A stretch of DNA of 64,000 nt from Rhizodiscina lignyota (GCA_010015805.1 ML978122.1:496001-560000); one strand, 5' to 3'. Positions 20,116-51,736 are shown, counted from the first letter of the stretch. Numbers and translations: made by a program. Notes: generated by a model from the letters alone, not told the origin.

Positions 20116-21910
20116 CTACTTCCTTCCCATCGCCTTTTCAATTACCTCTAGCGCGGCCATCACTTTCTCATCCATTCCTCTTCGGCCAATCACGGTCAGG
20201 TTCACTGGCGCGCCCACAAACTTCTCCGGTGCATAAATGTCGTAATTGTACTTGTCCTGGTCGTTCATTGGCTTGTATCCGGGTTCGTATACGTCCTTTT
20301 CAGTGTCCACAAACGTAACGGGGAAAACGGCTCCGGGGTAGTCCAACAAGTTCCAGTGACTCGTATACGGCCAGTATCTCGCAGTTTCATGAAGTGGCGC
20401 ACAACCAGGCGTTGTCGGACAAATAATTACATCGACTTCGCCCTCGCCCGTCTTCGGATCTGTGGCAGTTTTGCTCCACTGCGCAGCATACGCTTCTCGG
20501 TAAGCGTCACGTTCAGAGCATAGCTTCCAGAGCTCATGCATGTCGCGCTTTTTGACGTGCGGCTGCTCGTCTATGATAAACTTCGTCAACGGCAGGACCG
20601 GTTCGCCAGAAGCGTTCAGTGGCTCATAAGCGGCCTCGCCGCCATCTGGGAAGTACAGCGCAGAAACGAGATCCCAGCCTTTGGCGTGGTCGTACGGCAC
20701 CCAGTCGACAACTTCATGGCCTGCAGCTTTGCACGCATCAGCGACGATCTGCATCGCCCTGGTAGCAGGCGGATGCGGTCGGACTACTCCGTCGTCCCAC
20801 TCGATGGCAATTTTGAGCTTTTTGTTGACGGTTTCGGTGTCTGGGGTCCAGGGCTTAACAGTTAATGAGGGATCGGTCCGCCAGGGCTTGGTATCCAGGA
20901 TAGTCTTCATGAAAAGGTTCAACGTCTCGCGACTCTGTGTGAGGGGACCAAACGTCGCAAGAATGCTCTCCTTGCCATCCATAACATGCTTCATTCCCTT
21001 GAGAGGAATCCGCTTTGTTGTCGGCTTGAAGCCGTAAATCCCGCAATTGCTTGCTGGAGCTCTATTTAAGTCATGTTAGCCCCTCTCTTCTGTCAAATTT
21101 AACGGAGAATTCATTAGCTCACCTCACACTTCCTCCAATGTCACCACCAAGGCCCCAAACACTACCTCGGAATCCAACTAATGCTCCCTCGCCGCCGCTG
21201 CTGCCTCCGGACGTGAGGTCACGATTCCAAGGGTTGACGGTTCGTCCATAGACGTTGTTGTTACATTCCAGATGCATCAGAGTCTGCGGACCCGTGGTAC
21301 GGACATAGTAAACACAGCCAGCATCGTACAGAATGTCGTTGATTGGGTTTGGGTCTGACCCTTGGCCAATCCAAGCAACGTAACTGGCATGGTTCGTCTT
21401 TCCATTCATTCCATGGTGCTCTTTAACCTGTGACTGGTCAGATTCAATCGGAATCACTGAAAATTGCATGCTGCTCTTACAGATATCGGTAGTCCGTGCA
21501 ATGGTCCTATTGGCTCTGCGAGGGAATCCAAATATTTTGCTCGCTCAATTGCCTCATCCCACATCAACTCAGTCACACAATTAACCTGCGTATGATAATT
21601 CAGCAAATGATACAGTGCGGATATTGGAACAAGGGCAACGGACAGCATATTGGGCCAAGGCAGCTCTCCGGAGGAAAGCTCTTGTAAGCTCTTCTGATGT
21701 GAGTTTCTTCGTCCGAAGAAGCTCCAGTAGTTCAATAGCATCGTAGTTCTGGGTGAGCTCATACTCCCGCTCAGTGAGATACTCCTTCGCCAGGCCTTGA
21801 GAGCTCAATGGCAGAGGGTCTGGTAGGGGCTTCAGGGGCGGATCGACTTTGGAAAGGGTCTGGTCACGATAATCTCGTGCAGTCTTTGCCTTCTCTTCCC
21901 ATGGAGCCAT
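20116..21910 (-). CDS. Amidase signature family, acetamidase (AmdS)-like
   Basis: MAPWEEKAK start; GPLHGLPISVK, GGSSGGEGAL, GGDIGGS, YGFKPT, LDYPGAVFPV; three introns. Confidence 0.92.
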
Positions 21911-22671
21911 GTCGTCTTGTATTCCTAAGTATATCTCGGTGGATGTCTGCAACCTGTGACCAAGGAGTCCTCTCCGGCATCAGTGAGGGGTCCTAGAATC
22001 CTCATATTCGATCCCTTTATCCTCGGATGAGTTGCCGCGTCAAATCTGTTCGCACCACTCGCGAGCGAGACATCGTGTCCAGCCTCATCGTGCCTCTCTC
22101 TTGCTCCTTTTGGGTAGCAGTTACGGCTCCGCTGCTGCAACGCAACTTTGCTGCGTCGCTACGGTCCCAGCCTCCTTATCTGCTTGGCCCAGGGCAATTC
22201 AGCGCGCTCCTCCGCCCGCTTGCTGTTATCTTATGGAAATGTCGAAACGACAAGGCCCGTCCCGGATTATTCCCGCCAGATAACGGACCCTCAAGGGCCT
22301 TGGTTTCTCGGCCAGCGGAAATGTCGCTGCGGGGATGCCGATCGTGTTGATCGCATGCGGGCTGACGCGCGCGCTCCTGCGTTGCACACAAGACAACCTC
22401 TTCCCCAGTCCAAGTCCCCGTCGACAGCAGCAATCCTGCCTCTCTAGGAAAGAGAGCTGACATCTCCACCTTGAGATAGAGAACAATGTCTAGCTCAAGA
22501 ACGCGATGGCGCGAAACAGCGATGCTGGGAAGCTGCGTCTCTCTGCGAACACCGTGATACCAGGACAGGGGGAGGATCCTCACCGATAGGCATTCGTGAG
22601 CATACATAATGCCCAATGATGCTGCAAAGTTTAGTAAGTTCGTCTTCAAGAATTCCAGCCTTTCTGCAGTC

Positions 22672-24630
22672 ATGGCGAAGTTTCAGTTTCCAGTCACATT
22701 GGGCCTCAAGGGCAGGTTGCGATTGAACAGGTACGCGTCTCTCTCATCTGCCACTATCCTTGTATTCGTTGTCGGCGCGATCGTTATTGTCGAGCGGAGG
22801 AATGAAAGCACTCAGCTGTTCTGTGGTCGCACTTCGTCTAGATGCGCTCATGCACACATTTGCGATTTACGTTGTTTTTGTTCGTGGAGTTTAAGGAGTA
22901 CTCTACCTTCTTGTGCTTGAACTGTTCCCCAGCCACACGTTTAAAGTCAGAGGGAGCCTCTTCAGTTTTGCCACACATCGAACAACATTGGTGCCGTGCA
23001 TAATTTCGCTTACTTACATTCAACTCGACATTGCAAAAGTCGCATGCTGTCAGAGAATATGTCAGAGGCTAACAGAAGCAAACAGACCGTGGAACCAAAA
23101 CTTCGTCGTTGGCGCCATTCTCTTCTGTCTGCCTGGTATCTACCTCGCTCTCACAGGTCTTGGAGCTGGTGGTGGACGTCCTTCAAGTCAGCAAGTGGCC
23201 TCGACCACAAACGCGATTCTCTATGGGTTGTTCACGCTCTTTGGCTGGATCGGCGGATCCATCCTCAATCTGCTCAAGCCGAAGGTTACCATGATGATCG
23301 GGGCTCTCGGATACCCGCTTTACGTGGGAGGCCTGTGGTACTTTGATCGCCACGGCCACGACTGGTTCCCGTATCTCGCAGGCGCTCTCCTGGGTTGTAC
23401 TGCTGGCTGTCTCTGGACCGCAGCTGGATTCATCCAGTTTGCATACGCGAATGAGGACGAGAAAGGACGCTTTATCACGTGGCAATGGGTCCTCACCTCA
23501 TTCGGTGGCACCATCGGTTCTCTCATTGCATTCGGAGTGAACTTTCATTCCACTGGCTCCGTCGGTGTTTCCGACGCCGTGTATACAGTGTTCATCGTTA
23601 TCATGTGCATGGCGATTGTGATCGCCTTCTTCTTTATCGTGGACCCGAAGAAAGTGGTGCGCGACGACGGAACACATCTTGCACTTTTCAAACAAGCCAC
23701 GGTTATGACGGAGCTCAAAGGCCTCGCGGTTCTATTCACAGACTGGAAGATCTGGTGCTTAGTTCCTGGAGTACGTATTACCGAGACACTGTTCGCAGTG
23801 CCAAGGCTAATTTGTCTAGATTTTCGTGGCAGAGATGAATCTGGCGCTCATGTCCAGTATCAACGCTTATTACTTCAACCTCCGCACTCGCTCGCTCAAC
23901 AATGTCCTCTTCCAATTCATCATGATACCATGCCCTTTAGTTTTAGCCTCCATCTTGGACACCAGCCGAATCAAGTCAAGGCGAATGCGTGGGATGGTCG
24001 GAACGGCTTGCATGGGTACGCTTACCCTAGCAGTCTGTGCTGGCCTCGCTGGCTGGATTGCAAAGAACGACGTCAATCGCCAGAAAAACACACCTCCCGG
24101 GGTGGACTGGTCGGATAGTGCTTTCGGCGCTGGCTTTATCCTGTATCTCCTGGAAGGTATTGTCTATGCCTGCTACCAGATCTGTGTCCAGTGGACGCTG
24201 GGAGCGCTCTCAAACGATCCTATACAATGTGCGCGTTATGCCGGACTTTTCAAGGTACACTGTTCCCAAATCTCAAACGAAGCCAGACCACTGACGGAAT
24301 TAATAGGGCACAACATCTCTTGGAATGTGTGTCTCTTTCATCCTCGACTCGCAGAACGTTTCGTACATGGACCAGCTGATCGTGCAATTTGTGTTGTATG
24401 GCGTCGGCCTCGTCTTCCTCTTCGGCATTCTCTGGTTCCAGGTGAAAGAAACTAATTACTTCCTCGAAGAGGATGTCATTGTGCCGCACAAATTTGAGGA
24501 GAAGCTCACAATCGAGGGTAAAATCAACGAACAGCAACTAGAACACGAGCGGGAGAAGGAATTGCTTGCAGAGCAGGAAAGGGCATTCAGAAGGGATGAG
24601 AAAAACCCTACCGTGACTTCAGTTGCGTGA
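22672..24630 (+). CDS. UNC-93-like MFS membrane transporter
   Basis: Exon 1 MAKFQFPVTLGLKGRLRLNR; long intron about 22731-23085; then PWNQNFVVGAILFCLPGIY, LTGLGAGG, GYPLYVGGLW, VVRDDGT, YYFNLRTRSLN, ARYAGLFKG; divergent from the amidase. Confidence 0.85.
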
Positions 24631-25841: not shown

Positions 25842-26976
25842 ATGGCGCCAGGTGCGGTAGAAGTTCAGCCCATCACACCGATTGCGGTGAAGAAAGAGCT
25901 CAAGAGCTCCAAATCGCCTCTTCCGGAAGTCAAGGAGTTCGATGCGGCGACGTGTACCGTCGACGAGCTCGTCGATGCCCTGCGAGTGGCTGGAGGCGTG
26001 GTAGTAAGGAACATGCTCACCAAGGAGGAGGTAGAGCAAATCGAGGGAGATGTGCGGCCATGGCTAGAGAAGGATGTGCCGTGGGAGAACGGTATCTTTC
26101 GCAACTATGCAAGTACTGGATATCAATCTGATGTGAAGCACAGGCGATTTCTTTCCCCCGGAAACTCGTCGAGCCTGCGGTATGATCACCAAGAGCCGAA
26201 CATTCGCCCTTCGCATCGTTGGACATCCATTATGGCTTGGTGTCACGGATGCGCTCCTCACAAGCACCCAAAAGAACAACTGGGTAAGTCTTGCGGACTG
26301 AGGACTTTGTTCAATAGCTGAATGAAATGCTCCTCCAGGTTGGTGATAAGAACGAGCCCTCAGTGTCTGGGCCTCAGCTTAACAACACTATTGTGTTTTC
26401 AATCGGGCCCGGCGCACGCGATCAGGCACTCCACCGGGACGACCCTATCCACCACCGCGACTGGCCTGCTGTTGCAGAACACGAGCTCGGTCGTGACGGC
26501 GGCATCGGCTTCTTCATTGGGGGCAAGCGAACCACAAGAGAGAATGGCGCCACAAGGTTCATTCCAGGTAGCCATCTGTGGGATTACGCCGAAGGTCCAC
26601 CACGTGAAGACCAAGCATTTTACGCTGAGCTCCAACCCGGTGATGGATTCATGGTCATGAGTGGATGCTTCCACGGCGGAAGCGCGAACAAGACAAAGGA
26701 TGAGGAGAGGTTGGTCTTCTCGACGTTCAGCACGCGTGGATGGATGAGACAGGAGGAGAACCAGTATCTAGCCAACGATATTGAGAAGATCAAGGAGTTG
26801 CCAGAGTGGTTCCAAGAGAGAGTTGGATATGGGCTTAGTCGACCTTTCCTGGGGTGGGTCGATCTGAAGAACCCAATGTTGGTGTTGCATCCGGTGCGTT
26901 GATCCAGCCTGTTCTTGGTATATGTTCTTTCGCTAATCTCCAGCAGGATAAAGCAAAGTACGGCGACTTGTGGTAA
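25842..26976 (+). CDS. Phytanoyl-CoA dioxygenase (PhyH)-family Fe(II)/2OG dioxygenase
   Basis: GGVVVRN, IGPGARDQALHRDD (HxD), NGATRFIPGSHLW, CFHGGSAN (distal His), MRQEENQYL; three introns; last exon ends ...YGDLW TAA at 26976. Confidence 0.92.
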
Positions 26977-27380: not shown

Positions 27381-29123
27381 TCATCCAAGTAGATATGCCT
27401 TCCCAGATGAAGGTTTGATGATATCACCCCACCATACATCCTTAACTGGATTTTCATCCATAGAAGCCCAGACGAGTTGCATCAAATCCAGAGCGGATTG
27501 GAAGAGCCAGAGTCCAGTCTTATCTTTCCATCGCTTGCAAAAGTCTATCGCGATGCTTCGGAATCGGAACGAGTCCATCTCACAACCTGCAAGGAAGAGC
27601 GGCAATAGGCACTGCTTCTGCGTTGCTGAATTGGCAGGTAGATCATGTATGAGCCACATAATCTCTTCGGCTAGCATGCGGGCTTTCGTTTGCGATGCTT
27701 CACTCTGGTGAAACACACGAGTACAGTAAAGGAGCATCCCAAGCCTCCAACAGTCCGTGAGAGCAGTAATGTTTTTGTCTTGATTCTGGTGGACAGAATC
27801 AAAGCGTGCAAGCCAGAGGCCCATCTCCAAGCGCGTCACATGTCCATCTGGCAATGGCGAAGTGCATGACGCAGCCACGGCAATGTCGTACATGTCCAGA
27901 AATGCTATGTCGGGATACCCGTTGAGGGAGAGAAGGCTCCATTCGGTGTCGACTTGCCATGACATGAGTGCTTCGGAGTATGTTCGTGGAAAAACAGGCC
28001 CTTTGCGAGACAGTAATGCAGCAGTCGTATCGTACCATATCAATTGAGCGATTTGACTCCTGAGCTGCGTGTTGTACTCTGCAAGCTTAATGCCTCCAGA
28101 TGACTCCAGGATCCTGTACGCGCCCCGGAGGTGTATGCTCCAGTCAGATAGCGCAGTTTCTGCGTAATCTAGACCAATAAGAAGCAGTGAGATGGTGATA
28201 CCCATCTCACATGGTATACCATTCACCTTTAAATGAGACGCAAAGCTACACAATGCTCTATCCTTAAGCTCCAGGACTTGAAGACTTTCCGGTTCACCCT
28301 GGAGATGCGCCCGATGCCGCTTTGCCAGAGCAACCACAGCGTCTAATACGAACGGTGCTTCGTGGATCTGAGTGAGACACTGTTGCCAAGGATTGATGCG
28401 GACATCGTAAGTCAAAGTGATTGGGCTGAATTGCCATTTGAAGAAGGATAACTGTTCGCGTATCGCCCGCGGTAACTGAAAAACGGTCGGGTCGAAGTGG
28501 TATATGACCGACTTTATATGTGCATCTCCGTCTGAATGGCGTCGTTCAGACCCCAATGGCAATCTTGCCACGGTAGAAACGGGCTCGCCTACTTCTTCAA
28601 CGTCATCGTCTTCTTCCGGCTCAGGCGGAGACGCAGTCTCTTGGGTTGATGTCGAGATTGCAGGGGTCGACACCGGAGACATTATTTTGTCCTTTGCTTC
28701 ATCGACGTCATCGGCTTGCTGCGATGTTGTGTCCTCTCTCCGCCTGCGCTCAGCAACTTTCCGTGTCCTCCTCCCCTTCTTGGCTCCATTCCTCTGGTCT
28801 TGAACAAATGTAAAGGTTGACGGTTTCGGCAGCTCTTTTGAAGTCTTACTGAGAGACTCGGGGAGAACGGTATTTTGTCTGAAGTTGCGCTGAAATGCAT
28901 GTGGATCCCACTTCAAGACCTGAGTGTATCCGCCACAGGTCATCCCAGCCGTCGTGCATGCGTCGCATCGAGGGCGTCTTCGGTCGCAAGGGCGAGAGTT
29001 CGAGGCACAAGTGTGACAATCAGACTTTGCCCAACCGAGAGAGTTCGTTCGCTTGGTGGTGGGAGGTATGAACTGGCTCCGTGCGGGTGACGCAGCAGAA
29101 GCGGGCGACTGGACGGAAGCCAT
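27381..29123 (-). CDS. Zn(II)2Cys6 transcription factor, ACR-2-like, with fungal-specific TF domain
   Basis: Intronless; LGWAKSDCHTCASNSRPCDRRRPRCDACTTAGMTCGGY; WSIHLRGA, LIWYD, LLPLFLAGCE. Confidence 0.88.
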   Translation of the reverse strand: MASVQSPASAASPARSQFIPPTTKRTNSLGWAKSDCHTCASNSRPCDRRRPRCDACTTAGMTCGGYTQVLKWDPHAFQRNFRQNTVLPESLSKTSKELPKPSTFTFVQDQRNGAKKGRRTRKVAERRRREDTTSQQADDVDEAKDKIMSPVSTPAISTSTQETASPPEPEEDDDVEEVGEPVSTVARLPLGSERRHSDGDAHIKSVIYHFDPTVFQLPRAIREQLSFFKWQFSPITLTYDVRINPWQQCLTQIHEAPFVLDAVVALAKRHRAHLQGEPESLQVLELKDRALCSFASHLKVNGIPCEMGITISLLLIGLDYAETALSDWSIHLRGAYRILESSGGIKLAEYNTQLRSQIAQLIWYDTTAALLSRKGPVFPRTYSEALMSWQVDTEWSLLSLNGYPDIAFLDMYDIAVAASCTSPLPDGHVTRLEMGLWLARFDSVHQNQDKNITALTDCWRLGMLLYCTRVFHQSEASQTKARMLAEEIMWLIHDLPANSATQKQCLLPLFLAGCEMDSFRFRSIAIDFCKRWKDKTGLWLFQSALDLMQLVWASMDENPVKDVWWGDIIKPSSGKAYLLG

Positions 29124-29253
29124 GTGAAATGCTTGAGAGAAGAAGGATTCTGTCGATTTTGAGAAGCATAGCAGAAATGAAACGATCAAAACTGGGAAGA
29201 TAATGAAATGCTACACCACCCAACGCTCAACGCTGCCATCACAAGAGAGATGG

Positions 29254-30058: not shown

Positions 30059-30847
30059 ATGTCGACAATCATCCTTATTACTGGTAAGAATAGTCTTGTG
30101 GTTGCATCATCGAACCAACGCTGAATTCCACCAGGAGCCAACTCTGGAGTTGGCTTTTCCTCCACGAAAGTCATCGCCTCCGCTTCATCTGAGTACCACA
30201 TTATTATGGCAGGACGCTCGCTCGAGAAGGTAGAAGCCGCGAAGGCTGAGATCGAGAAGACGGGCATTAAAGGATCTATCAGCACCATACAGTTCGACGT
30301 CACGGACAAGTCATCTATTGATGCCGCTGTGAAGCAAGTCGAATCTGAATTCGGACACATCGATGTGCTCATCAACAACGCTGGCGTTACTTCGCGGAAT
30401 CCGGATCTGAAGGCACAGATTGAGGAGACCATGGCCGCAAATGTCGTTGGTCCTGCATTGGTCTCCCAGGGTTTCCAACCGTTGCTATTCAAATCAAACA
30501 GACCGTACTCTATCTACGTGAGCAGCGGGCTCGGCTCGCTGGAAAGGGCCATAGAGCATCCGATTCCCAACGATCAGTGGACCGTATACAGGATGAGCAA
30601 AGCCGCCCTGGATATGCTCATGGTTCAAGAATACACGGCGCTGAGAGGAAAGGGTGTGAAGGTGTTCGCAATGTGTCCGGGTCTAGTGAGATCAAACTTG
30701 AGAGGCAAGTCGGCAACGGAAGTTAGCGCTGGCGGTGCTGCTGGAGACCCAGACATCTCAGGACACACAATGTTGACCATCGTCCAGGGTGAGAGGGATG
30801 CAGATGCAGGACGTATTGTGCACAAGGATGGCACTTACAACTGGTGA
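30059..30847 (+). CDS. Short-chain dehydrogenase/reductase (carbonyl reductase-like)
   Basis: MSTIILITG, intron, ANSGVG; LINNAG; YRMSK catalytic motif; MCPGLVRSNL. Confidence 0.9.
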
Positions 30848-31489: not shown

Positions 31490-32683
31490 ATGCCTCCTCC
31501 ATTCCGAGCCGAGCATATTGGCTCTCTCATTAGACCCCAAATGCTGCTGGATGCTCGTAAAGCCGCACACATAGACCAAAACTTCCAAGGCGTGTCACCG
31601 GAGATCAAGCAAGCTACCGAATCCGCCATCTCCGAAGTCGTGAAGCAGCAACTATCCCGCGATGTCCGCCCCCTCACTACTGGGGAGTTTGAACGTCATA
31701 TCTTCTATGGTGGCTTCTTCGAGAACATTGAGGGTTTTGAGATTCGCGACCTTCCCATTCCGGAGGCATTCCGCACCAACTTTGCACCTACAGCACTCGC
31801 CAAGAAAATGGGTCACGACACTCGCGAGAGCCCAATTGCAACAGGAAAGATGAAGCGGCCTAAGAGTACGTATATGGACGACTGGATGCACTTGAGGAAT
31901 CTGTTACCGGAAGAGCAGTGGAAGGAGTGCAAGTTTACGATGCCACCTCCAACACAATCGCATATTGCTGTCAAACCTGGAATGATTTTCACTCCCGAGT
32001 CTGGATACACGTCTGAGAAGGAGTATTTCTCCGATTTGGCAGAAATATATCGCGAGGAAATGGCAGATCTGTACGATGCCGGCCTCAGGGATATCCAGGT
32101 TGACGATCCGTATATGACATTTCTCCTGGCGGACTGGTACCTCGAAGGTTTACGTTTAGACGGCGAAGATCCGGATGATATCCTGGACATGTATATCTGG
32201 GCGCATAATGAGTGTCTGAAGAGACGTCCCGCAGACTTACATGTTGGCATCCATCTCTGCAGAGGTAACTTCGCTGGACACCACTTCGCAAGCGGATCCT
32301 ATGACAGAATTGCAAAGAAAATGTTCAGTTACCTAGATTACGACACTTATTATCTGGAATACGATACGGAGCGCGCTGGCGGCTTTGAACCTTTGAAGGA
32401 TTTGCCTGTCGGGAAGAACGTGGTTCTCGGTGTGGTCTCTACCAAGACTCCGGAGCTGGAGGATGTCGACGAGTGCGTGGCGAGAATCCATGAGGCAGCT
32501 GATGTGATTGCGAACGGCCAAGGCAGGACCAGGGATGAAGTCTTGAGAGATATGGGCGTGAGCCCTCAATGTGGATTCGGCAGCTTCAGTCTGGCACAAC
32601 CGATGACTGATGATCAACAGTGGGCAAAGTTAGCCCTCGTTCGGCAGATAGCGCAAAAGATATGGGGCAATGAGGCCAAATGA
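31490..32683 (+). CDS. Cobalamin-independent methionine synthase-like protein, catalytic domain only (YxjH/MesD-like)
   Basis: Intronless; FRAEHIGSLIRP, TTGEFER, IQVDDP, zinc-ligand motifs HLCRGN, LEYD and SPQCGF; about 400 aa, lacks the N-terminal folate-binding half of MetE/Met6. Confidence 0.9.
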   Translation: MPPPFRAEHIGSLIRPQMLLDARKAAHIDQNFQGVSPEIKQATESAISEVVKQQLSRDVRPLTTGEFERHIFYGGFFENIEGFEIRDLPIPEAFRTNFAPTALAKKMGHDTRESPIATGKMKRPKSTYMDDWMHLRNLLPEEQWKECKFTMPPPTQSHIAVKPGMIFTPESGYTSEKEYFSDLAEIYREEMADLYDAGLRDIQVDDPYMTFLLADWYLEGLRLDGEDPDDILDMYIWAHNECLKRRPADLHVGIHLCRGNFAGHHFASGSYDRIAKKMFSYLDYDTYYLEYDTERAGGFEPLKDLPVGKNVVLGVVSTKTPELEDVDECVARIHEAADVIANGQGRTRDEVLRDMGVSPQCGFGSFSLAQPMTDDQQWAKLALVRQIAQKIWGNEAK

Positions 32684-32752
32684 GATATGGAGAGTCGTAT
32701 GATCCCGGTAATGAAGTGTGATGGATTAGTGCAATCCTTGCAATATGTCTAT

Positions 32753-40468: not shown

Positions 40469-41864
40469 ATGGAAAACAACTGCCCAAAGGTGAAAATCCC
40501 CTGGCTGTCCGTCTGCGGAAATGCTTTGTTCTGATTGGCCAATTGCTAATCCCTGAGATGTAGGAGTACGTTCACTGTATGTTTCAAAAGATATTGTTGC
40601 AATTGAATGTCCATTTACTCATGAGTTCAAGACCATGCTGGCGGCAGGCCAGGCTCTCGTCCAATCCTCACTGGGTACGCTACACAAATTCTTCTGAAAG
40701 GAGTGCATTTACTGATCCTCTGCAGAAAGGATGCCAAGCCAACGTTCGAGGAGATCCCAAAGATTGATATGAGCCCGATCTTCTCGGAATCACTAGAAGA
40801 GCGAAAGAAAGTAGCAGCTCAGGTTGGAAAGGCCTGCAAAGAAGTCGGCTTCTTCTATGCTGTAAACCACGGCGTCTCGGAAGAAACCATCCAAGGAGCA
40901 TTCCGTGCAGTTGAGAATTGGTTCTCTCAGCCGGAGGAAGTCAAATTGGAGACGAATATCAATCAAAATAAGCACTTCAGGGGCTATGAGCCGCTTCTCT
41001 CGACGCAGCTTGACCCCAATACTAGAGGAGGTACGCTTGAAGAAAACCAATTTCTGAATTCAAACACTCACGACTCTCGCAGATCTCAAGGAAGCATATA
41101 TGATCGGCGAGGATCCGTATGATCCAGAATCTAGATGTCCAGATGATGTTAAGGAGAAGATTATGAAGAAGCATCCCGATCTGATTCCGCGAAATCAGTG
41201 GCCAAAGATCCCGACTCCTGCAAATCAAGCTCTTCGCCCGGCAGTGTACGGCTATTACAAGGAAATGGTCGACTTCGCGAGGGCCCTGTTGCGAACCTTT
41301 GCCTTGGCCCTCGACATGCCAGAGAATCACTTCGACTCAATTGCGACGTTCCCGAAGTGCAATATGCGGAGTCTGCACTACCCATCGCAAGAGTTCGCAA
41401 CGGACGTTGGAATCGGCGCACACACCGACTACTCTTGCTTCACTTTGGTATGCCAGTCAACCTCATGTCCCTCCGGCCTGCAGGTCCTCAATGCAAACGG
41501 CATCTGGGTGAACGCGCCTCCAGTCGAGAGAACTTTTGTCTGCAATGTTGGCGACTTCTTCCAGGAAGCTACAGCAGGCAGGTTCCTCAGTACTGTGCAC
41601 AGGGTAGTAAACAAGACTGGCTCGGAGAGGTACAGCATTCCATTCTTCTTTGCGCCCAATATGGATGCGGAGATGGCAGTTGTAGAGAGCTGCAGGGAGC
41701 CTGGTAAAGAATACCAGCCTCTCCAGGTGGGGGCATACTTTAAGAAGAGGATTGCGGCTGCGCGGTCGAAGCATCCGGATGGAACCACGCCAGAAAAGAC
41801 ACGAGCGGAGGATGACGGAAAGTTGATTCTGGAGACAGTGAAGCAGGTCGCTGCTGTAGCATAA
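40469..41864 (+). CDS. Isopenicillin N synthase-like Fe(II)/2OG oxygenase (DIOX_N plus 2OG-FeII_Oxy)
   Basis: IPKIDM, ACKEVGFFYAVNHGV, GAHTDY (HxD), STVHRV, RYSIPFF (RxS); the 5' end is built from small exons (MENNCPK; 13-nt exon 40564-40576; 44-nt exon). Confidence 0.9.
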
Positions 41865-42137: not shown

Positions 42138-43763
42138 TTATGTTCCGACCGAGCCGGAGTTGTCCGCACAGTCGAAGGCACCTCCAATCAGACCAGAAGC
42201 GTACGCATCAATGATCTGCTGAACCACGCCGTAAGTACCACCACCGAGGATGAACAGACCAAGGGCGATCATGCCCCAGTGCATCAGCCAATAGGCCTTG
42301 AACAAAACGTTGCCCTTCCAGTAATCCCAGTGGTCATAAAGCCACAGCCAAGCTGGCAAGCAAATGGCCATCGGAGCGAAGCAGACGCTGCCAGTGAGGG
42401 CAATGAGGAAACTGAAGATTGGTACGGCCTCGCAGATGATAAATGCAACCGCTGCAAGTCCGATGACGGTACCAAGCCAGGTGGCCCAGTGAATGACGGT
42501 GTTATGTTGGAGATGGCGCGAGTCTCTCAGAATACGAACGAAGACGTATTTGGAAGCGACATGGAGATACAGGCACGCGGACACTATGAGACCAACAAGA
42601 CCGATGGCGTAGGAGACGATCTTGACGGTGTGTCCAGCGCTACCGATAGACGGGTTGGCAACATACTGGCCGCACCTTCTGAGTGTTAGCACAAATCTGA
42701 GGTGCTTCTCGTTTTTGGAGAACTTACCATCTATACACAACCAGGGCAAAAGTCAAGTAGGATGCTTGCACAAGAGCCATGCACCAGTAGACGGCCTTGT
42801 TGTACTCCTTGGGATTGCGCATCTCCGAAATCACAGGGAGGAAAGCAGAAGTTCCAGCTGATGAGACGAAGATTGTGGCGGTGGCCGTCATACCGTCGAC
42901 GAAAGTCGTGCTAGGGGGTACCGCAAACCAACCAAGGTCATAATCACCTGTTGGGGGTGCTGTCGCTGGTCGGGTCCTCGTTGTCACAGCGATGCTACTC
43001 ATCGTCAGCAATGGAAGCACTATTATTGTAAACACCAGTTTGACTTACACAACAATGAAGACTGCCGCGTAAATGGAAAAGAATCCAGCATAAGTAAGCC
43101 ATCCGATTTGGTGGAACTTTCGGACGCTAGCAGCAAGGACGACAATGACCGTAGCGACAAATGTGAACCAGACCGTGCAAGCTTTTGAGATATTAGCTTT
43201 AGCCACTGTTGAATGTGTCTCGATGAACTCACCTCCGTGCGTGGAGAAAACATTCAGTGCGATGGAGACACCCAAAATGCCAGAGCCAGTGCAGAGGACA
43301 TATGCGACGATGAAAAGCAAGCCAACGACTTCCCTGAGTACCTTTCCGCCAAGAACGTTCGCCATGTCGGCGATACTATGGCAGCCAGCATGACGATTTC
43401 TGAAATTTCCTTGAACGATTGCAGTGTAGGTGTTCAAGAGACCCCAACCAATCACGGAGAAGCCACCACCAACTGCTCCAAGAGAGAACATCGCCGTCGG
43501 GATACTAAGCACACCAGTCGCGAAGATGACTGCAAACTGGTTAGCAATAATTGCGATTCATAGTCAAGACAGTTCTCACCCTTCAAGAAGATAATGGACG
43601 CCTTTTGCCATGATACAGTACGGAAGTCAACAACATCTTCACCCTTCTTGAAGACTTCGAATTCGTTCTCGATCTCTTTGTCGTAGATGATATCCTCCGC
43701 GTCACCCATGCTGATGCTCCGTCTGTGGATGCTCCCAATGCTTCCATCTTTTTCGCCCGTCAT
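42138..43763 (-). CDS. Amino acid/auxin permease (Aa_trans), Mtr-like neutral amino acid transporter
   Basis: EVFKKGEDVVDFRTVSW, FATGVLSIP, HAGCHSIADMA, SSAGTSAFLPVISEMRNP, GGAFDCADNS; multi-intron. Confidence 0.9.
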
Positions 43764-45463
43764 CTTGTCGACGTTGTATTAGAGTACAATGTAAAAGTTG
43801 AACAAGGGCGAAGCCAAAGAAAATAGTGTCGTGAGGTTCGAACCGTTCGCGCGGGTCAGGCCAAACCTTCAAACGGATACCTCGAACTATGTACTAAACG
43901 GCGCGTCTCCCAACAGAGGGGTTCGTATCTAGGCCCTTGATAGCGAGGTGCGGCAGCCCATGCGCCTTATGCTTGTGTGCCTGCTTGGACAAGCCATGGC
44001 GGACAAGCATATCTACAGTGCTGACCGGGTTCATTCAACCTGGGGGAGGGATTAGCCACTTTGCACGTGGAGATGAGCGATTATGGGAAGGAATGCCCTT
44101 ATCGGTGGCATTAGTCTCAAACCGCAATTGAGCGCTGTCGTGAAAATGACAAGGGTAGATATCGCCGAGAACTCGTTGATGTACAGGACTTCGGCAGTCT
44201 TCCGAAAAGGGAACGAGATATATTGTTGATAAGAACGGTGTTCCAAAACGACTGCATGCTCCCGCAGGATTCCGCAGGCTATTTTCCAAATGTATTAGGA
44301 GACGACAGGCGAACAGGAAGTCCGACGGAGATGGGAATCATGGATGATAAGAAGGGAGGTCTAACCTCTTCAGCGTAAGACTCCTCTTAGTGGGGACTGC
44401 CTAGGCCTGATACAGTAAAGCGCAAGAGGACCAAAACGTAGTTAGAGTTGAACAAAACATTATCAAAGATTTGAAACGGTGTCTCTGGAGGATGGTTAGC
44501 AGGGGCTGAGATCCAGGAAACAAGCAAGCGAACGTCGATCATTCAGGCATGTTGCCTAAAGTCTCCTACTAAATTAAGATTTATTTCTAAACTCGACAGA
44601 AGTCCACGCGAGAACTCAATCTCTCCCAAAGTTCCAGCCTCAAAGATATTGGAATTATTCCAGCTGCTATCTCTGTGGGTCTCGAAAATGCTGAGACTCG
44701 GCCAGTCGTGGACCGGGAAATTCTAGACTCATCGCACGACATGCGAATATTGGCCGGGAGGTGGCTAGCCATGATGCCACGAGTCCGCACTGCGCATGCA
44801 TTCCTGCAGGTCCTGTGGCTGGTTGGAAGCGTTATCTGAACGTTCCCAGGCGCCACTCTCTCGGTTAATGTCGTATCTTTATCTGGAGTTCCAAATGGTG
44901 AAGAAGTTCCAAAATCATACGTCCAGAACTGATAGTCCAAAAGAGGTAATTCCGATGAATTCGCCGAGGACTTGAGTCGTTCACTCGCTCGCATAAACGT
45001 AAGTCGAGACAAAGATGGGCGGGGAAGCTTAACTCTCCCGCCGCAGGTTCCCCGCACAATGTGAATGCGCTTATTAATGGTTTGCTATCAGGGTGTGGGC
45101 CGGAAGCACTGGGGAGCGCGGAAGGCGCTTGTTCGCGTCAATATCAGAACAACCTGTCAGACTAAGCCCTAGCGAGCATCGCCTGTCAACATCCTATCAT
45201 ACGACCAGTCACACGGCGTGAGTGTCTCAACATATGAGGGACTATTCGAGTTGTTCTAGACTCCGCTCCAAGGGTGAACGAAGTGGCTGGGCCCAAAGAT
45301 AGTAGCTGGGCATCAACATCAACATCAACACCATCGCCTAGGAACAATAGCGCGCTTTTAGTACGTTCTTAATGAATAATGCTCTCTCAAAGTATCTCGC
45401 AGTGCTTTGAAACTGATATCCATATCCCCACTGGCCATTTGATACCTTTTTTTGTTCCGTTGA

Positions 45464-46588
45464 TCAAGCGCCACCCGTTCTGCTACCCGGCTTGTACGGG
45501 AACTTCTCCTTGTAGTGTTTCGCGATATTTCGTCTCGTAGTCACCCAGACATCGGGTTTGTCGTTGACGTACTTCATGAAATTTCGTAGCGCCTCTGCTC
45601 TTCCAGCTTTGCCTGATATCCTCGAGTGTAGGGGAATGTTCATCAGTTTTCCTCCTTCTCGGTACAGCATGTCAAACGTGCTCTTCAGGTACTGCTCGTA
45701 CAACTGGCCGGCGCTGGTGACGAAGCCCGGAGACATGTGGAATTTGCCGTCATTGCAATCATAGTTGTAGGGGACTACGAGCATGCCTTTTCGCTCATTC
45801 TCTGGCAGGGAAGCCTCCCAAGGGAGATCTACCCAATACGGCACATCGTCGTTGTACGCTTCGGAGCTGTAGAGCAATTCTGAACCGCACTCTTTCCACA
45901 CGATGGGGCAGAGCGCGTGTGTATTTGGAGTGCCACGGCCGAAGTAGAAGCCTACTGGCATCTCTCCGGTCGCCTGCTTCAGCGTCATGATGGTGTCCTT
46001 GATGTATTTCTTGTCTGCCTCGAGGTCATAGTCCCAGAATTCGAGCCACCGGTAACCTGCAGATCATACAGTCAGTCCTGTCATATTGTGATTATGCCCG
46101 AGAATTGGTCTGGTATAGAGAATGTGGACAATCTTACCATGCGCGCCAATTTCGTGACCTTCCCGAATACATGCTTTTGAGAAGGGCTCATTCCGCTCCA
46201 TAGCTTTGGCAATAGCCCAAATTGTCATTTGCCATCCAAACTCCTTCATCAGCCGCATTATACGCCACACTCCGGATCGACTACCGTATTCAAAGTCATG
46301 CTCGGTATTTAGGTGCCTGCCTCCCGTCTTGACACCTCCAGCGGATCCCTTCTCCCACAAGTAGGGCTCCATAACATCATCTCCATCCGCAACGTTGCGC
46401 TCACCACCCTCTTCGTAGTTCAGGATGAACGAAACCGCTATGCGAGCGCCGTTCGGCCATTGGGGATCGTGTGACTCTTCTCCGAATCCTATGCGTCTTT
46501 TAGTTACAACTCCTCTGCCAGCTGGATGATAGATCGGCTCACCTATGAAGTCCCGCGGAATTTGACAGTTCTCTTCAACATGGACCAT
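45464..46588 (-). CDS. Polysaccharide deacetylase fold, PuuE-type (metal-independent allantoinase-like) hydrolase
   Basis: PRDFIGFG, WPNGARIAVSFILNYEEGGE, EYGSRSGVWR, GHEIGAHGYRW, YNDDVPYW, FDMLYREG, LHSRISG; two introns. Confidence 0.88.
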
Positions 46589-46974: not shown

Positions 46975-48753
46975 ATGTCTGTCTTTTCAGTGACACCTAA
47001 GGATGGTAATCCTGTCTCTGCGGCAGTCCTCGATGACTGCTGCAAGACGTTGGGGGTCACTGTCAAAGAAGATGAGCACGAGGACTACCGGAAGCTGCTC
47101 GCAGTCTTCCACGAATCGGCTGAAGAGCTGATGGCCCTGCCAGGTAATGATCGAAAGTCCAATTGTAGAATAATTTAATACTGACGATGTAGATTATGAA
47201 CCTCCTGTGGACCTCGAGAGATTCCCTCGCAGAAACCTTCATTTCCCCGACAAGAAGGATAACGAATATGGTGCCTGGGCATGGAAGTTCGACCTCAAAG
47301 ACATTAGGCCTTCGATGACCAAGGGGCTATTAGCCGGGAAGAGACTTGCTTTAAAGGACAACATAGCTGTCAAAGATGTCCCAATGCTTGTTGGTACAGA
47401 TTTCTTCAAGGGTTTTGTGCCGGTGAGATGCAATGATTATACTTGATATCCCCCGAATCCAAGACTAATAGGTATGAATTCAGACCACCGATGCTACTGT
47501 TGTCACGCGCATTCTCGAGGCCGGGGGTCACATCTTGGGCAAGGCCGTATGCGAGAACATGTGTCACAGCGGGACATCACACTCGGCGGCCACTGGTGTG
47601 GTCGAGAATCCACATGTGAAAGGTTACAGCTCAGGAGGCAGTTCAAGTGGCAGCGGTGTGCTTGTTTCGTTGGGCGAAGTGGACATGGCAATCGGTGCAG
47701 ACCAAGGCGGCTCTGTCCGAATACCCAGCTGCAATTGTGGCATTGTTGGACTCAAGCCGACATTCGGGCTCATTCCCTACACAGCTTGCGGCTCGAATGA
47801 GCCAACCAACGACCATCTGGGCCCAATGACGAAATCCGTGCTCGATAATGCGTATCTTCTTCAGGCAATTGCAGGCAATGACAACATCGATGATCGAAGT
47901 TTCGCTGCTCCGCATCCTCAGAATATACCCAGATACGGTGATAATCTGGCGAGACGCCCCAATCCCACGAATCTGAAGGGCATGCGGTTTGGCATCATCT
48001 CTGAGTCTCTTACAAGTGCAGTCGTAGATCCTCGCGTAAAGGCCACCATCCTCGCAGCTGCGGAGACATTCAAGAAGCTCGGTGCAGAAGTCATCGAGGT
48101 CAGCATCCCAATCCACAAGAAAGGGACTGCGATCTGGACGTAAGACCATAAATTTACTCCGATCATATGGCCACACACGCTGACATGATATGAACAGTGG
48201 CGTCAGCAAAGTGGGCGGCTACCTTGCCAAGTCATCTGGCCCGTTCGGACGCCGTGGCTACCAAATGATCGATCTGCAACAGCGCATGTGGCCATTGAGG
48301 CAGGAAGGCTGGGACAATGCATACGTCTCGACGAAGAACATATACTTGAACGGAGTCTATGCTCTGACTGCATTCCCCGAATTATTATCGAAGGCAACGA
48401 ATCTTTCCAGGCAACTCAGAGACTCGTATGACGCCGTTCTCAGCGACGTCGACCTCTTGCTCACTCCAACACTACCTTATGTCGCGACCAGCCACAGCGC
48501 TCCCGATGCCACTCCACTGGACCAGATTGCGAAGCAAGTCGGGCTCACCAGCTCGACCGCTCAATTCAATCAGACTGGGCACCCTGCACTTACGCTGCCA
48601 TGCGGCATGCTGGAGGTCCTAGAAGGACCCGAGAAGGGTTCTGGGAAGAAACTTCCGGTGGGCTTGCAGATCATCGGAAAATGGTGGGATGAAGAGACTG
48701 TGTACAAAGCAGCATATGCATGGGAGCTGTCCAGCGATTGGAAGAATTTGTAA
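46975..48753 (+). CDS. Amidase signature family (GatA-like fold)
   Basis: MSVFSVTP start; LAGKRLALKDN, GGSSSG, GADQGGSVRIP, GLKPTFGLIPYT, FNQTGHPAL, LPVGLQIIG; three introns; divergent from the PuuE-like gene. Confidence 0.92.
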
Positions 48754-49207
48754 TGAGATTAGACCTAGTGAGCCTCTGTTCACAGTTTTCTCACGCGAAT
48801 ACTGTAGTTTGGCTCTTAGATGATAAATGAGAACTTTATGCGTCATGGACTCATGCATCAAGGGACCTCTTTGCCCTTTCGCTTATTCAGTGTCAACCGT
48901 GAGATTCTCCTGCGTACTTTCCTCGAAATTGAAGCCACGCCGCAAGTGTCTGTTTGACGGTTGCAGAAGAATTGCATCGCAGCGAAGAGTAGCTGTTCTA
49001 GCTTCTAGCTCAGCCAAATGGAATTTTTTAGTCATATCTTAGTCACGCAGTGTTCGCCCTCAATATGAAATTCCGGGCGACTGCAATTTGCACTTTCTTT
49101 CATTCTCCGATTAAAAATGGGATATCCGTGATTTCCCTACTACCAAGACGATCTTTCTGTGTCACGCCAATACTTTCCTTTCCAATGAAATCGCGTGCCG
49201 TATTACA

Positions 49208-49996
49208 ATGACAGAAAGCAAGACAAATATCTTGATCACTGGGGCCGCATCCGGGATTGGATTATGCTTCCTTGAACATTTCCGAAGACAAGCGAATACA
49301 TGGACTATCGCCGTTGATAGAATGGAGATCCCAATCAGCAGGACTTTAGATGACTCTTGGATGAGCGTTCACGCAGATCTTACAGACGAGATTTCGCTCC
49401 GGAACGTAATGCGAGAAATTGGCGATATCCCAATTCATCTCGTGATACATAGCGCTGGCATTAGAGGCCTCATGCCGCCAGTCTCCGAAGTAAACGATGT
49501 GCCGAGCAGAGAGACATGGCAAGCGATAACCACCTCGAAATTGGTGGAGACCTTCAATATCAACACGGCCGCAACCTTCTCGTTGCTGAAGATGCTAATG
49601 GGCCGCCTCATTTGGGCTGGCACGAATGATGTTTGGATGGCCGATGAGAATGGACATCCAACGGCTCGCTGTCCTTGGGTTTTCGCTCCGAAAGTTGTCA
49701 TCATGACATCTCGAATGGGATCAGTCTCTTACAACTCGGTTGGTGGAGCATATGCGTATCGCGCTAGCAAAGCTGCACTTAATGCAATCGTTAAGAGCTT
49801 CAGCATAGACATGCCGGAAATACTGTTTGCCTTAGTACATCCGGGCAGAGTAGAGACTGGCCTTGTCGAATTCAAAGAGGAGAGGGCAATGGGAGCTGAG
49901 GAGAGCGTTGGAGACATGCTGAAGCTTATTGAGCGCCTTGAGCTTAAAGACAGCGGAAGATTCATGGACAGATTTGGAGAAGATATTGGGTGGTGA
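49208..49996 (+). CDS. Short-chain dehydrogenase/reductase (CsgA/C-factor-like)
   Basis: ILITGAASGIG, IHSAGI, TSRMGS, YAYRASKAALN, VHPGRVET, GRFMDRFGEDIGW; intronless. Confidence 0.88.
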   Translation: MTESKTNILITGAASGIGLCFLEHFRRQANTWTIAVDRMEIPISRTLDDSWMSVHADLTDEISLRNVMREIGDIPIHLVIHSAGIRGLMPPVSEVNDVPSRETWQAITTSKLVETFNINTAATFSLLKMLMGRLIWAGTNDVWMADENGHPTARCPWVFAPKVVIMTSRMGSVSYNSVGGAYAYRASKAALNAIVKSFSIDMPEILFALVHPGRVETGLVEFKEERAMGAEESVGDMLKLIERLELKDSGRFMDRFGEDIGW

Positions 49997-50020
49997 AACG
50001 GCAGGCGTTCCATCTACGTT

Positions 50021-50294
50021 CACCTTCTTCCGCAGGGCTCGCACTGTGCGCGAAATTCGACCTATATTCGAATTTCACCTTCTTCTACGGAGCTTGCGCT
50101 ATGTACGCAAGTTGGCCTGTATTCAAAGTTTACCTTCTTCGAAGAAGTTCGCAATATGCGCACACATTACACGATGTACCGACTCACCTCGCGCGAACTA
50201 TCTCGCACTACGCATGGATGTTAGACTATTTGCGGAGTTCATCTTCTTCGAGGGAGCTCACACTGCTACTATATGGATCCAGCTCACTGTTCAC
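50021..50294. repeat. Degenerate tandem array, five units of 54-55 bp
   Basis: Units start at 50021, 50076, 50131, 50185 and 50240 with CACCTTCTTC, CACCTTCTTC, TACCTTCTTC, CACCTCGCGC and CATCTTCTTC, each followed by a variant of G(A)GCTCGCACT(A/G)TG. Confidence 0.75.
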
Positions 50295-50884
50295 ATACCC
50301 CAGCCAATCTACATAGACGACCAGGTTTCTTTGTACATAAACGTCCACGGGCGCCAAGAATTTGGCACCTGCTGCTGCAAGCAATTGTTCCTTTGTCTTT
50401 GGCTTATCACCCCGAGAACTGTTTAATTATATATAGATACATAGAACAAGCTTTACCTTAAATAAACCACTTAGCGGTATCGTATATCTGAAAGTGAGCG
50501 ATGTTATTATTACCTACATTCACTTCAACTACGCGTCGATTGATTCGTGTTCCAGTAGATAATTTGTGGTATCTATTCCCTATGATTTGTACTTTAAGGA
50601 GTAGCAACTACTAAAGGTGGCAAAGTAGTTATATATCTCACTTCGCATGGAGAGCTAATCCCTGACAGAACGGGAGATCGACACAGGGTGCTGGAGCTTT
50701 GACATTGGCCCCACGATCATCGGGAGTCGGCATCGGCGCACGGTTGCGAAATACCACCGTCTGCCGTGCTTGCTTTCTAACTTCGCGACCTGGCCGCCTG
50801 GAATTCCAGAGACGGTGTCAGCTATAAGAAGATGAAATTATTCTCTGCTACGTGAAAGCTCACCCTCAATTTTCTCCAGCGACA

Positions 50885-51736
50885 ATGTTTTACGAACCGG
50901 GAAAGACGGAGCATGGCCTCCCCTATGATCCATTCAAAGTAAGCTCAACAGTAATGTTCTTACGTCTTATTACTCCAATTTATATTGCATCATGATTGTT
51001 TACGCTGGCTGGCTAGGCATGCGTCGTCCCACGGCCCATTGGCTGGATCTCCACAGTTTCCTCCTCCGGCATATACAACCTAGCGCCGTTCTCCCAGTTC
51101 AATAATCTCACCTTCGACCCTCCATATGTCATGTTCTCCGCAAACCAAACTACCACAAGTATGCGGAAAGACTCCGTCGTCAATGCTGAATCCACGGGAA
51201 AGTTCTGCTGGAGCTTGGCGACCTGGGATCTGCGAGAGCAGGTCAACATTTCCAGCGAAGAAGTGCCCCCAGACGTCGACGAATTTGAGCGCGCAGAGCT
51301 TGAGAAAGAGTGGAGCGCGGTGTTGCCCGAAGGCAAAGAGGGCAAGGTGCCAATGGTCAAGGCCAGCCCGGTGAAATTTGAGTGCTTGTATCATTCCACA
51401 GTGCGGTTACCTGGTAACCCACCTATGGGAACTGTAGATGTCATAATTGGCCGTGTGGTGGGGATACATGTGTCAGACGACGTGATAACAGATGGGAAAG
51501 TGGATATCACCAAGACACAACCGATTGCCAGATGTGGATATTATCAGTATGCGGTAGTGAGGGAGACGTTCGACATGATCATACCGGGCATGAATGAGTT
51601 GATTAGGAGTGGAATGGAGGGTAGTGCGAAGAAGAACAAGGCAGCAGCAGAAGGATCTCAGATTGCTGAAGTCGGCATCAATACTGCGACGAATGGCCAA
51701 TCGAAACAGCGCACTCTAGGCGCTCCAAAGGTATGA
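50885..51736 (+). CDS. Flavin reductase-like FMN-binding protein (DIM6/NtaB family)
   Basis: MFYEPGKTEHGLPYDPFK, intron, ACVVPRPIGWIST, NLAPFSQFN, KDSVVNAESTG, SPVKFEC, PIARCGYYQY. Confidence 0.9.

Follow-up and report, generated by a model that had tools for sequence, protein, structure and literature searches.

A four-gene core of hydantoinase-family, amidase, permease and PuuE-like genes within a backbone-free 14-gene cluster of Rhizodiscina lignyota, possibly serving the salvage of a cyclic amide or ureide

Introduction

How eukaryotes draw nitrogen from cyclic amides, hydantoins and ureides is barely charted, and in the literature surveyed the hxn pathway for nicotinate is the only fully dissected eukaryotic example. 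Here we describe a run of 14 consecutive genes (20116-51736) in a 64,000-nucleotide stretch of the Rhizodiscina lignyota genome (GCA_010015805.1, ML978122.1:496001-560000; hereafter the window, to which all coordinates refer), in which three amidases stand among two putative ring-opening enzymes, oxidoreductases, transporters and a regulator. According to PMC9304392, the end steps of the hxn pathway are carried out by the short-chain dehydrogenase (SDR) HxnW, which oxidises a hydroxy-lactam to an imide, then by the CE4 cyclic imidase HxnM and then by the amidase HxnN. The hxn regulon of Aspergillus nidulans also holds a thymine 7-hydroxylase (T7H)-like 2-oxoglutarate (2OG) enzyme, HxnY, a molybdenum cofactor (MOCO)/FAD hydroxylase, HxnS, and the FAD monooxygenases HxnX and HxnV, as given in PMC8478523.

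No description of a fungal cluster with the present gene set was found in the literature, subscription journals lying outside the search. In bacterial hyu operons a ring-opening enzyme is followed by a hydrolase that frees an amino acid or ammonia, and the natural substrate of PuuE is a hydantoin. The lamA product of A. nidulans is oxoprolinase-like; nothing pertinent to its identity was found in the literature. According to PMC8016842, the lam locus (lamA/lamB) serves lactam utilisation under AmdR. For the iprodione pathway of Paenarthrobacter (IpaH amidase, DdaH and DuaH), PMC12927932 describes an amidase and the polysaccharide-deacetylase-family enzyme DdaH acting on a hydantoin-containing intermediate, with the genes for a HyuA/HyuB N-methylhydantoinase co-induced.

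Results

Fourteen consecutive genes without a biosynthetic backbone

A Pfam scan of 129 stop-to-stop open reading frames (ORFs) of at least 85 residues between 18.8 and 53.1 kb gave matches in 23 of them, and these were assembled by exon joining into a set of 14 genes of the intron-bearing type, numbered g1 to g14 from left to right. The split genes have short GT..AG introns in the style of filamentous ascomycetes, and the composition is even across the window (GC 0.48-0.55 per 2 kb). With the flanks (125 ORFs, matches in 10), 254 ORFs were scanned over the whole window, and 91 additional ORFs of at least 45 residues from the five larger gaps gave no Pfam match above the curated cut-off inside the cluster. 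The original prediction, made from this DNA alone, had named 14 consecutive genes of these families, uninterrupted by housekeeping genes and free of a backbone enzyme, and the scans bear it out on each of these points: the same domains are present, nothing recognisable lies between the genes, and housekeeping genes begin only at 53.2 kb, with APC11 followed by Pcc1, SET and trpC. None of the 254 ORFs carries a core scaffold enzyme domain (polyketide synthase, PKS; nonribosomal peptide synthetase, NRPS; terpene synthase or cyclase; DMATS; isocyanide synthase), and pyridoxal phosphate (PLP)-enzyme, P450 and prenyltransferase domains are likewise absent from them; a biosynthetic cluster built on a core enzyme is not present here.

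Four genes stay together in a related lineage

The defensible conserved unit consists of g7, g8, g10 and g11 (32.7-46.6 kb) and recurs in about one additional lineage. It is made up of a fused HyuA/HyuB hydantoinase/oxoprolinase-family gene (g7; 32753-37081, minus strand; 1364 residues, 5 exons), a PRK07235-type amidase gene (g8; 37884-40081, plus strand; 541 residues in the annotated model P0241), an AAAP (Aa_trans) permease gene (g10; 42138-43763, minus strand; at least 4 exons, with Aa_trans on three of them) and a gene for a PuuE-like hydrolase of the CE4 fold (g11; 45464-46588, minus strand; ~347 residues or less, Pfam Polysacc_deac_1). The unit disagrees with the division into two adjacent modules at 30.8/31.5 kb that had been suggested in the original prediction.

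We compared six loci of relatives (L001-L006), obtained in a metagenome scan with g7, by tblastn with 44 exon and ORF queries from the window; two of them, L005 and L006, were too short for a comparison of neighbours. The most informative, L003, covers the terminal 19.4 kb of a metagenome contig of 204 kb; its g7 copy is 81% identical to that of the window, and the locus carries g11 (419-1408, plus strand), g10 (2386-3973, plus strand), g8 (5820-4159, minus strand) and g7 (6956-11051, plus strand) in the same order and relative orientation as the window. Protein identities of the four genes span 65-92% (66-82% for g10 and 77-84% for g11), while the DNA between them can no longer be aligned. 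Only 186 bp separate g10 from g8 in L003, and g9 is therefore absent there; g9 gave no match in any of L001-L006, and neither did the g2 exon and g5 queries. The L003 contig ends 315 bp upstream of g11, and the synteny comparison there covers only the side from g11 leftward to g1. The 8.4 kb past g7 hold a carbonic-anhydrase-like (Pro_CA-like) gene, unknown ORFs and a NACHT NLR gene. In two further loci, L002 and L004 (81-82%), g8 is divergent from g7 as in the window.

Among the 120 best of 8000 scored matches, g7 belongs to a widespread orthogroup of ~1360-residue proteins with identities of 59-81%, namely 79-81% in unnamed contigs, 64-74% in many Dothideomycetes and 59-63% in Eurotiomycetes and Leotiomycetes. 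The best named relatives of g8 (60-68%) are also from Dothideomycetes; the same search recovered the annotated g8 model itself, P0241, which assigns the window to a Dothideomycete. For g6 there is one 72% relative on a short contig and otherwise nothing above 57-58%, mostly from Eurotiales and Xylariales; its phyletic pattern is patchy and differs from those of g7 and g8. As a weak proxy for linkage, we compared the longest-contig sizes listed for the homologues of g7 and g8; they coincide for two Logan contigs, of 53,855 and 25,026 bp, and in three of the 11 named species compared (Saccharata, Lophium and Corynespora).

The two putative ring-opening enzymes

The domains Hydant_A_N, Hydantoinase_A, Hydant_A_C and Hydantoinase_B lie on consecutive exons of g7, and its spliced ORF runs through without a stop; by its sequence, the product belongs to the HyuA/HyuB ATP-dependent hydantoinase/oxoprolinase family. 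Its best solved relative is the N-methylhydantoinase 7hk5 (1288 residues, E 1.5e-98, 334 bits), with caprolactamase 6yra at E 9.7e-85 (289 bits) and acetophenone/acetone carboxylase subunits at E 1e-58 to 2e-56 (~200 bits). Scored against the caprolactamase equivalogs, g7 yielded 414 bits for the alpha model (NF050156) and 107.8 + 45.5 bits for the beta model (NF050157), short of the cut-off of 1000, and its HyuB part is ~30% identical to caprolactamase beta. The predicted fold and ATP-dependent chemistry are clear from these alignments. A 56-nucleotide intron (36971-37026, minus strand; donor GTTTGT) splits the GGTFTD phosphate-binding motif of g7; the L003 orthologue is without this intron and its GGTFTD motif is read uninterrupted.

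The alignment of g11 spans the whole TIGR03212 PuuE profile (positions 5-297 over two exons). Scanned separately, the exons gave 151.8 and 118.4 bits, a sum of ~270 that lies under the equivalog cut-off of 424.6. The closest structures are 3s6o, 1z7a and 3cl6 (E 5e-36 to 6e-33), with 3rxz at 1e-5, and HpPgdA (3qbu) was absent from the five structure matches of the g11 exon at E<=0.01. In an alignment of seven sequences g11 keeps the PuuE-type NYEEG and GHEI-x-HG stretches. Its subfamily has few members (27 representatives at E<=1e-30 out of 1.84 billion), and a fusion to OHCU decarboxylase occurs in the distant representative P0394 but not in g11.

Two side observations concern the g11 gene models. 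After RDFIG, the g11 ORF (46400-46588, minus strand) has 18 residues, EPIYHPAGRGVVTKRRIG, that are missing from L003 (316-470) and from the representatives P0362 and P0363; this stretch is probably an in-frame intron near the N-terminus, and g11 may therefore be ~18 residues shorter than the model. The 715-residue representative P0363 has a g11-like PuuE domain (70% identity) followed by a tail that resembles the central portion of fungal transcription factors, has no Pfam hit and matches neither g4 nor the second transcription factor in the window. P0363 is probably two neighbouring genes merged by the gene caller, which would place a regulator beside a PuuE-like gene in another fungus.

The three amidases

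Amidase-signature enzymes are marked by a GGSS[GS]G stretch and an upstream lysine, and GGSSSG is readable in the translations of both g8 and g12 (46975-48753, plus strand; 536 residues, 4 exons). These two PRK07235-type amidases are paralogues, 35% identical over their full length, with Pfam Amidase matches at E 3e-48 (g8) and 1.5e-51 (g12). PRK07235 is the best NCBIfam model for each, with 261 bits on the main exon of g8 and 277.9 + 104.8 bits for g12, single-exon scores that lie under the 545-bit cut-off. The closest solved relative of both is a Rhodococcus amidase, 3a1k (E 1.8e-53 for g12), and FAAH is matched only at ~4e-11. The third amidase, g1 (20116-21910, minus strand; 540 residues, 4 exons, Pfam Amidase on three of them), has 8wv2 (E 3.9e-65), 6kvr and FAAH1 as its closest solved structures, which places it in the FAAH/AmdS-like clade.

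Promoter arrangement and GATA sites

By their coordinates, g1/g2, g4/g5, g7/g8 and g11/g12 form four divergent promoter pairs, the last three with shared promoters of 0.9 kb, ~0.8 kb and 386 bp, respectively. Both ring-opening enzymes, g7 and g11, stand head-to-head with a PRK07235-type amidase of their own, g8 and g12. The motif HGATAR is the target of AreA-type nitrogen regulators. We counted 34 HGATAR sites in the 7,926 bp of 10 cluster promoters and 32 in the 14,006 bp of 6 flanking intergenic controls, densities of 4.3 and 2.3 per kb and thus a ~1.9-fold enrichment (Poisson P=5e-4). The enrichment is uneven, being highest in the g1/g2 promoter (7.2 per kb) and high in g4/g5 (6.4 per kb), with no site in the g6 promoter and background density at g13 and g14. 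In L003 the density is 8.8 per kb in the g7/g8 promoter and 6.1 per kb in that of g10. The gene-free spacer between g10 and g11 (43764-45463), 1.7 kb long against ~1 kb in L003, holds no Pfam-recognisable remnant and has six HGATAR sites in its first kilobase.

A search of the 10 cluster promoters for CGG/CCG dyads with spacers of 0-15 found only CCGN4CCG in as many as five of them, and this dyad is absent from the L003 promoters. When the g7/g8 promoters were aligned, those of L002-L004 aligned with one another and that of the window did not align meaningfully. The nitrogen-scavenging character proposed in the original prediction is supported, in that the head-to-head pairs of ring-opener and amidase, the permease and the GATA enrichment all agree with it. 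A shared Zn2Cys6-type motif did not emerge from these promoters.

Bacterial relatives of g7

With the alignment of fungal g7 homologues we retrieved 50 bacterial loci that have adjacent hyuA and hyuB genes 35-50% identical to g7. No bacterial operon that the fungal block could have copied is present among the 50 loci: a MetE-like gene and an SDR gene occur at one locus each, and the window genes other than these and the partners weighed in the Discussion occur at none. Pfam scans of six of the loci revealed varied neighbours: two have HMGL-like, DUF1302/DUF1329 and aconitase genes and PrpR-type activators; one locus has an amidase, an alpha/beta-hydrolase, a peptide-type binding protein, an acyl-CoA ligase and PrpD, and others have other mixtures. 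Within 2-19 kb, L018 (Dokdonella) and L022 (Rhodanobacter) share a conserved set of HMGL-like, MMPL/DUF1302/DUF1329 envelope, aconitase-family and PrpR-type sigma-54 activator genes, suggestive of a carbon-acid or carboxylase-type system yet to be characterised.

Accessory genes and flanks

To the left of the four-gene unit, next to g1, lies an UNC-93-like major facilitator superfamily (MFS) transporter gene (g2; ~22609-24630, plus strand; UNC-93 52 bits, MFS_1 sub-threshold), whose start and first intron are tentative. The PhyH-family Fe/2OG dioxygenase g3 (25842-26902, plus strand; 317 residues, 3 exons) has NvfE (9vmf, E 5e-46) and SwnH1 (9osa, 2e-31) as its closest solved structures, then other fungal secondary-metabolite dioxygenases; its 42 solved relatives at E<=1e-3 are mostly of this kind, including NvfE, SwnH1/2, PrhA, AusE, AsqJ and FtmOx1. 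The Zn2Cys6 transcription factor g4 (27381-29123, minus strand; 580 residues in a single exon, Fungal_trans_2 93.7 bits) shows the pattern CX2CX6CX6CX2CX6C in its translation, and its N-terminal 74 residues score 22.2 bits for Zn_clus against a cut-off of 21. It is followed by a short-chain dehydrogenase (g5; 30059-30847, plus strand; 245 residues, 2 exons, adh_short 107 bits) and by a protein with the MetE catalytic domain only (g6; 31490-32683, plus strand; 397 residues, single exon, Pfam Meth_synt_2 only), which matches 1ypx over its full length (E 2.7e-53) and reaches 235.6 bits with NCBIfam PRK06520, under the cut-off of 313.

Between g8 and g10 lies a DIOX_N + 2OG-FeII_Oxy oxygenase gene (g9; 40625-41864, plus strand) with a tentative 5' exon. 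Its structure matches are headed by 9ovh (8e-32) and include thymine dioxygenase 5c3p (3.8e-20); it is a generic fungal oxygenase of the family. As a 5' exon of g9, the ATG at 40636 with a GTACGC donor was rejected as frame-incompatible with the CTGCAG acceptor. Right of the unit and of g12 are a second short-chain dehydrogenase (g13; 49208-49996, plus strand; 262 residues, single exon, adh_short; NCBIfam SDR models ~70 bits) and a flavin-reductase-like split-barrel protein (g14; 50885-51736, plus strand; 257 residues, 2 exons, Flavin_Reduct 57.7 bits). The latter matches 3bpk, nitrilotriacetate (NTA) monooxygenase component B (E 1.3e-23), and resembles the flavin-reductase component of two-component monooxygenases; an oxygenase partner for it is absent.

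The left flank holds an NmrA-like gene (1167-2225, plus strand), the second Zn2Cys6/Fungal_trans_2 factor (2974-4538, minus strand), an oxidase of the DAO family (7941-9645, plus strand), for which L-pipecolate oxidase is the best, though weak, NCBIfam match, and an SDR (17180-18151, minus strand). Since this flank looks metabolic, the accessory region may extend past the left border of the original prediction. Between the DAO-family oxidase and the SDR preceding the cluster lies an uninterrupted ORF of 984 residues (13801-16752, plus strand) with no Pfam (E<=0.01) or NCBIfam match. On the right, an ORF of 337 residues (51918-52928, minus strand) without a Pfam match at E<=0.01 directly follows g14, before the APC11 gene, and may be either an orphan or a further, fifteenth gene of the cluster.

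Discussion

The reading that we favour, tentatively and with reservations, is that a conserved core for the uptake, ring opening and deamidation of a probably hydantoin-like cyclic amide or ureide sits here amid lineage-specific oxidoreductase, methyltransferase and regulator genes; the 14 genes are probably not one fixed pathway. The sequence data show the gene content, the intact domains, the two head-to-head pairs, the g11-g10-g8-g7 synteny in one related lineage and the GATA enrichment, whereas the substrate class, the order of reactions, control by nitrogen and any part played by g1-g6, g9, g13 and g14 are inferred. The AAAP permease g10 would import an amino-acid-like cyclic amide or ureide, our preferred guess being a hydantoin/imidazolidinedione with a substituent at position 5 or on nitrogen, or else a related lactam. 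A ring C-N bond would then be opened either by g7, with consumption of ATP, or by the PuuE-like g11 in a metal-independent manner, and the linear amide or N-carbamoyl product would be hydrolysed by g8 and g12 with release of ammonia. The oxygenase g9, together with g13, g14 and possibly g3 and g5, might prepare related substrates, for example by an oxidation like that of HxnW, from hydroxy-lactam to imide. A methyl group might be dealt with by the MetE-like g6, and some of the genes could be under the control of g4. In this lineage, these oxidoreductases and g6 would broaden the range of substrates or make them ready for the core. We prefer a hydantoin-type substrate because PuuE naturally acts on a hydantoin and because, in the Paenarthrobacter pathway (PMC12927932), the same three enzyme families act on a hydantoin-bearing intermediate.

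A number of observations weigh against this reading. The L002-L004 contig names form one series and may come from one organism, so that the synteny rests on about one independent lineage plus contig coincidences; L001, whose g7 is 68% identical, is without any cluster gene within 9.8 kb upstream of g7, where DJ-1/PfpI and aldo-keto reductase genes lie instead, with a sugar transporter gene downstream; and in 8 of the 11 named species the g7 and g8 homologues list different contig sizes, by the same weak proxy for linkage as above. The expected partners are rare at the 50 bacterial loci (PuuE-like at one, amidases at nine, all of the Acidimicrobiales type and ~7 kb away, Aa_trans at none), and three of the six loci scanned with Pfam (L018, L022 and L032) adjoin HMGL-like, aconitase-family or PrpR-type genes, neighbours that belong to carbon-acid metabolism. 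The identity of g7 to any solved family member is only ~30%, and its substrate is therefore not readable from homology. In the promoters, no CGG/CCG dyad occurs in more than 5 of the 10, and the g7/g8 promoters of the window and L003 share words no more often than chance would give, with 31 8-mers, 5 9-mers and 1 10-mer as compared with 26.6, 6.6 and 1.7 in shuffles.

The order proposed in the original prediction, a single co-regulated 14-gene pathway under g4 that takes one unusual N-heterocycle through uptake, oxidation, ring opening and amide hydrolysis, is in our view unlikely. It would account for 14 consecutive metabolic, transport and regulator genes with nothing else between them, for the four divergent promoter pairs and for the GATA enrichment that extends to g1/g2 and g4/g5 at 7.2 and 6.4 sites per kb, and the part of it that holds in L003 is that g11-g10-g8-g7 stay together. 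The same locus is without g9 and without g6-g1 in the 8.4 kb past g7, however, the named relatives of g6 (<=57%) are from Eurotiales and Xylariales as opposed to Dothideomycetes for g7 and g8, a CGG/CCG dyad common to the promoters is lacking, the g6 promoter has no HGATAR site at all, and g3 finds its nearest solved relatives among tailoring dioxygenases of secondary metabolism. That the genes have no collective function, being independent accessory catabolic genes of a plastic region with the four-gene block held together by mere inherited linkage, seems to us just as unlikely. The missing synteny in L001, the different listed contigs of g7 and g8 homologues in 8 of 11 named species (a weak proxy), the bacterial g7 relatives without partners and the want of a shared promoter motif beyond generic GATA sites would all fit such a neighbourhood, but the four genes keep order and orientation, with proteins 65-92% identical, while the intervening non-coding sequence has diverged beyond alignment, and the head-to-head arrangement of ring-opener and amidase occurs twice. 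Chance is also an unlikely source of three amidase-signature genes and two cyclic-amide hydrolases among 14 consecutive genes, with a rough estimate of ~2e-6 per 14-gene window under figures of ~20 amidases and ~11,000 genes that are assumed rather than measured.

Two narrower alternatives are each improbable, and more so than the two above. At least the left part (g1-g6) might, as a cluster without a backbone gene, serve the biosynthesis or tailoring of a small metabolite derived from an amino acid and not catabolism: a transcription factor, an MFS exporter, an SDR and a methyltransferase are typical cluster accessories, which g4, the exporter-like g2, the SDR and the methyltransferase-like g6 would supply, and the solved relatives of g3 are mostly dioxygenases of fungal secondary metabolism. 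This is opposed by the absence of core synthase, PLP, P450 and prenyltransferase domains from the 254 ORFs, by the place of g1 in the hydrolytic FAAH/AmdS-like clade and by the peak of GATA density at the g1/g2 promoter. Alternatively, g7 could be an ATP-dependent carboxylase-type enzyme of carbon metabolism, akin to acetone and acetophenone carboxylases, with an incidental amidase linkage. Such subunits do occur among its solved relatives (E 1e-58 to 2e-56), and genes for HMGL-like and aconitase proteins and for a PrpR sigma-54 activator adjoin the bacterial genes most similar to it, those of Rhodanobacter and Dokdonella; nevertheless, the carboxylases (~200 bits) are outscored by N-methylhydantoinase (334 bits) and by caprolactamase (289 bits, and 414 with NF050156), the A and B parts form a single chain with no extra small-subunit gene nearby, and the divergent amidase partner is conserved. 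A bolder reading, somewhat less likely than the single pathway under g4 and a little likelier than these two alternatives, would have all 14 genes form one AreA + g4 regulon for a hitherto undescribed fungal pathway that mineralises a substituted, possibly N-methylated, hydantoin or ureide. Two ring-openers that differ in mechanism, the ATP-driven HyuA/B fusion and the metal-independent PuuE-like enzyme, would each be co-transcribed with a dedicated amidase in head-to-head arrangement, and 2OG and zinc MetE-like methyl-transfer enzymes would remove substituents; candidate substrates would be compounds such as N-methylhydantoin, creatinine-like molecules or a plant- or lichen-derived imidazolidinedione.

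Should g7, g8, g10 and g11 prove to be a functional unit, a role would be assigned to the widespread, uncharacterised ~1360-residue fungal hydantoinase/oxoprolinase orthogroup and to the small PuuE-like subfamily, and the enzymes could be of use in hydantoin and lactam biocatalysis. If they are a mere neighbourhood, the locus would illustrate how a cluster is assembled around a small conserved core.

Comparison with known systems

The locus is like hxn in combining an SDR, a metal-independent ring-opening hydrolase of the CE4 fold, an amidase-signature enzyme, a T7H-like 2OG oxygenase and transporters, and in being of a fungal nitrogen-salvage type, GATA-factor control being a feature of hxn. 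Xanthine-dehydrogenase, FAD_binding_3 and old yellow enzyme (OYE) domains are found in none of the 254 window ORFs, g11 matches PuuE-type structures and not the HpPgdA type (3qbu) of HxnM, and g8 and g12 resemble 3a1k and not the FAAH type of HxnN, the FAAH/AmdS-like amidase of the window being g1; conversely, the ATP-dependent HyuA/B enzyme, the MetE-like protein and the AAAP permease have no hxn counterpart. Because MOCO hydroxylase, FAD monooxygenases and OYE are lacking, g11 is PuuE-type and g8/g12 are not FAAH-like, the locus is not hxn. With PuuE allantoinase (3cl6, 1z7a) g11 shares the whole profile and the NYEEG and GHEI-x-HG stretches, but its score does not reach the equivalog cut-off and uricase, HIU hydrolase, OHCU decarboxylase and allantoicase domains are found in none of the window ORFs, and the locus is therefore not a canonical PuuE purine locus. 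The mismatch with the DAL/purine and hxn pathways that the original prediction had noted is thus confirmed by the domains absent from the window.

In having all four family domains in one chain, g7 is like the N-methylhydantoinase 7hk5. Set against the hyu operon, the locus differs in that the partner hydrolase is an amidase-signature enzyme and in that no racemase is present. The lam locus is similar in having a divergent pair around the step that opens the ring of lactams serving as nitrogen source, but a LamB_YcsF domain is found in none of the window ORFs and the gene divergent from g7 encodes an amidase; without a LamB/YcsF gene, the locus is not of the lam type. The Paenarthrobacter pathway is bacterial, is directed at a xenobiotic and is without 2OG, SDR and MetE-like components, unlike the window; it nevertheless brings together the three enzyme families to which g8/g12, g11 and g7 belong, the likeness of g11 to DdaH being one of enzyme family.

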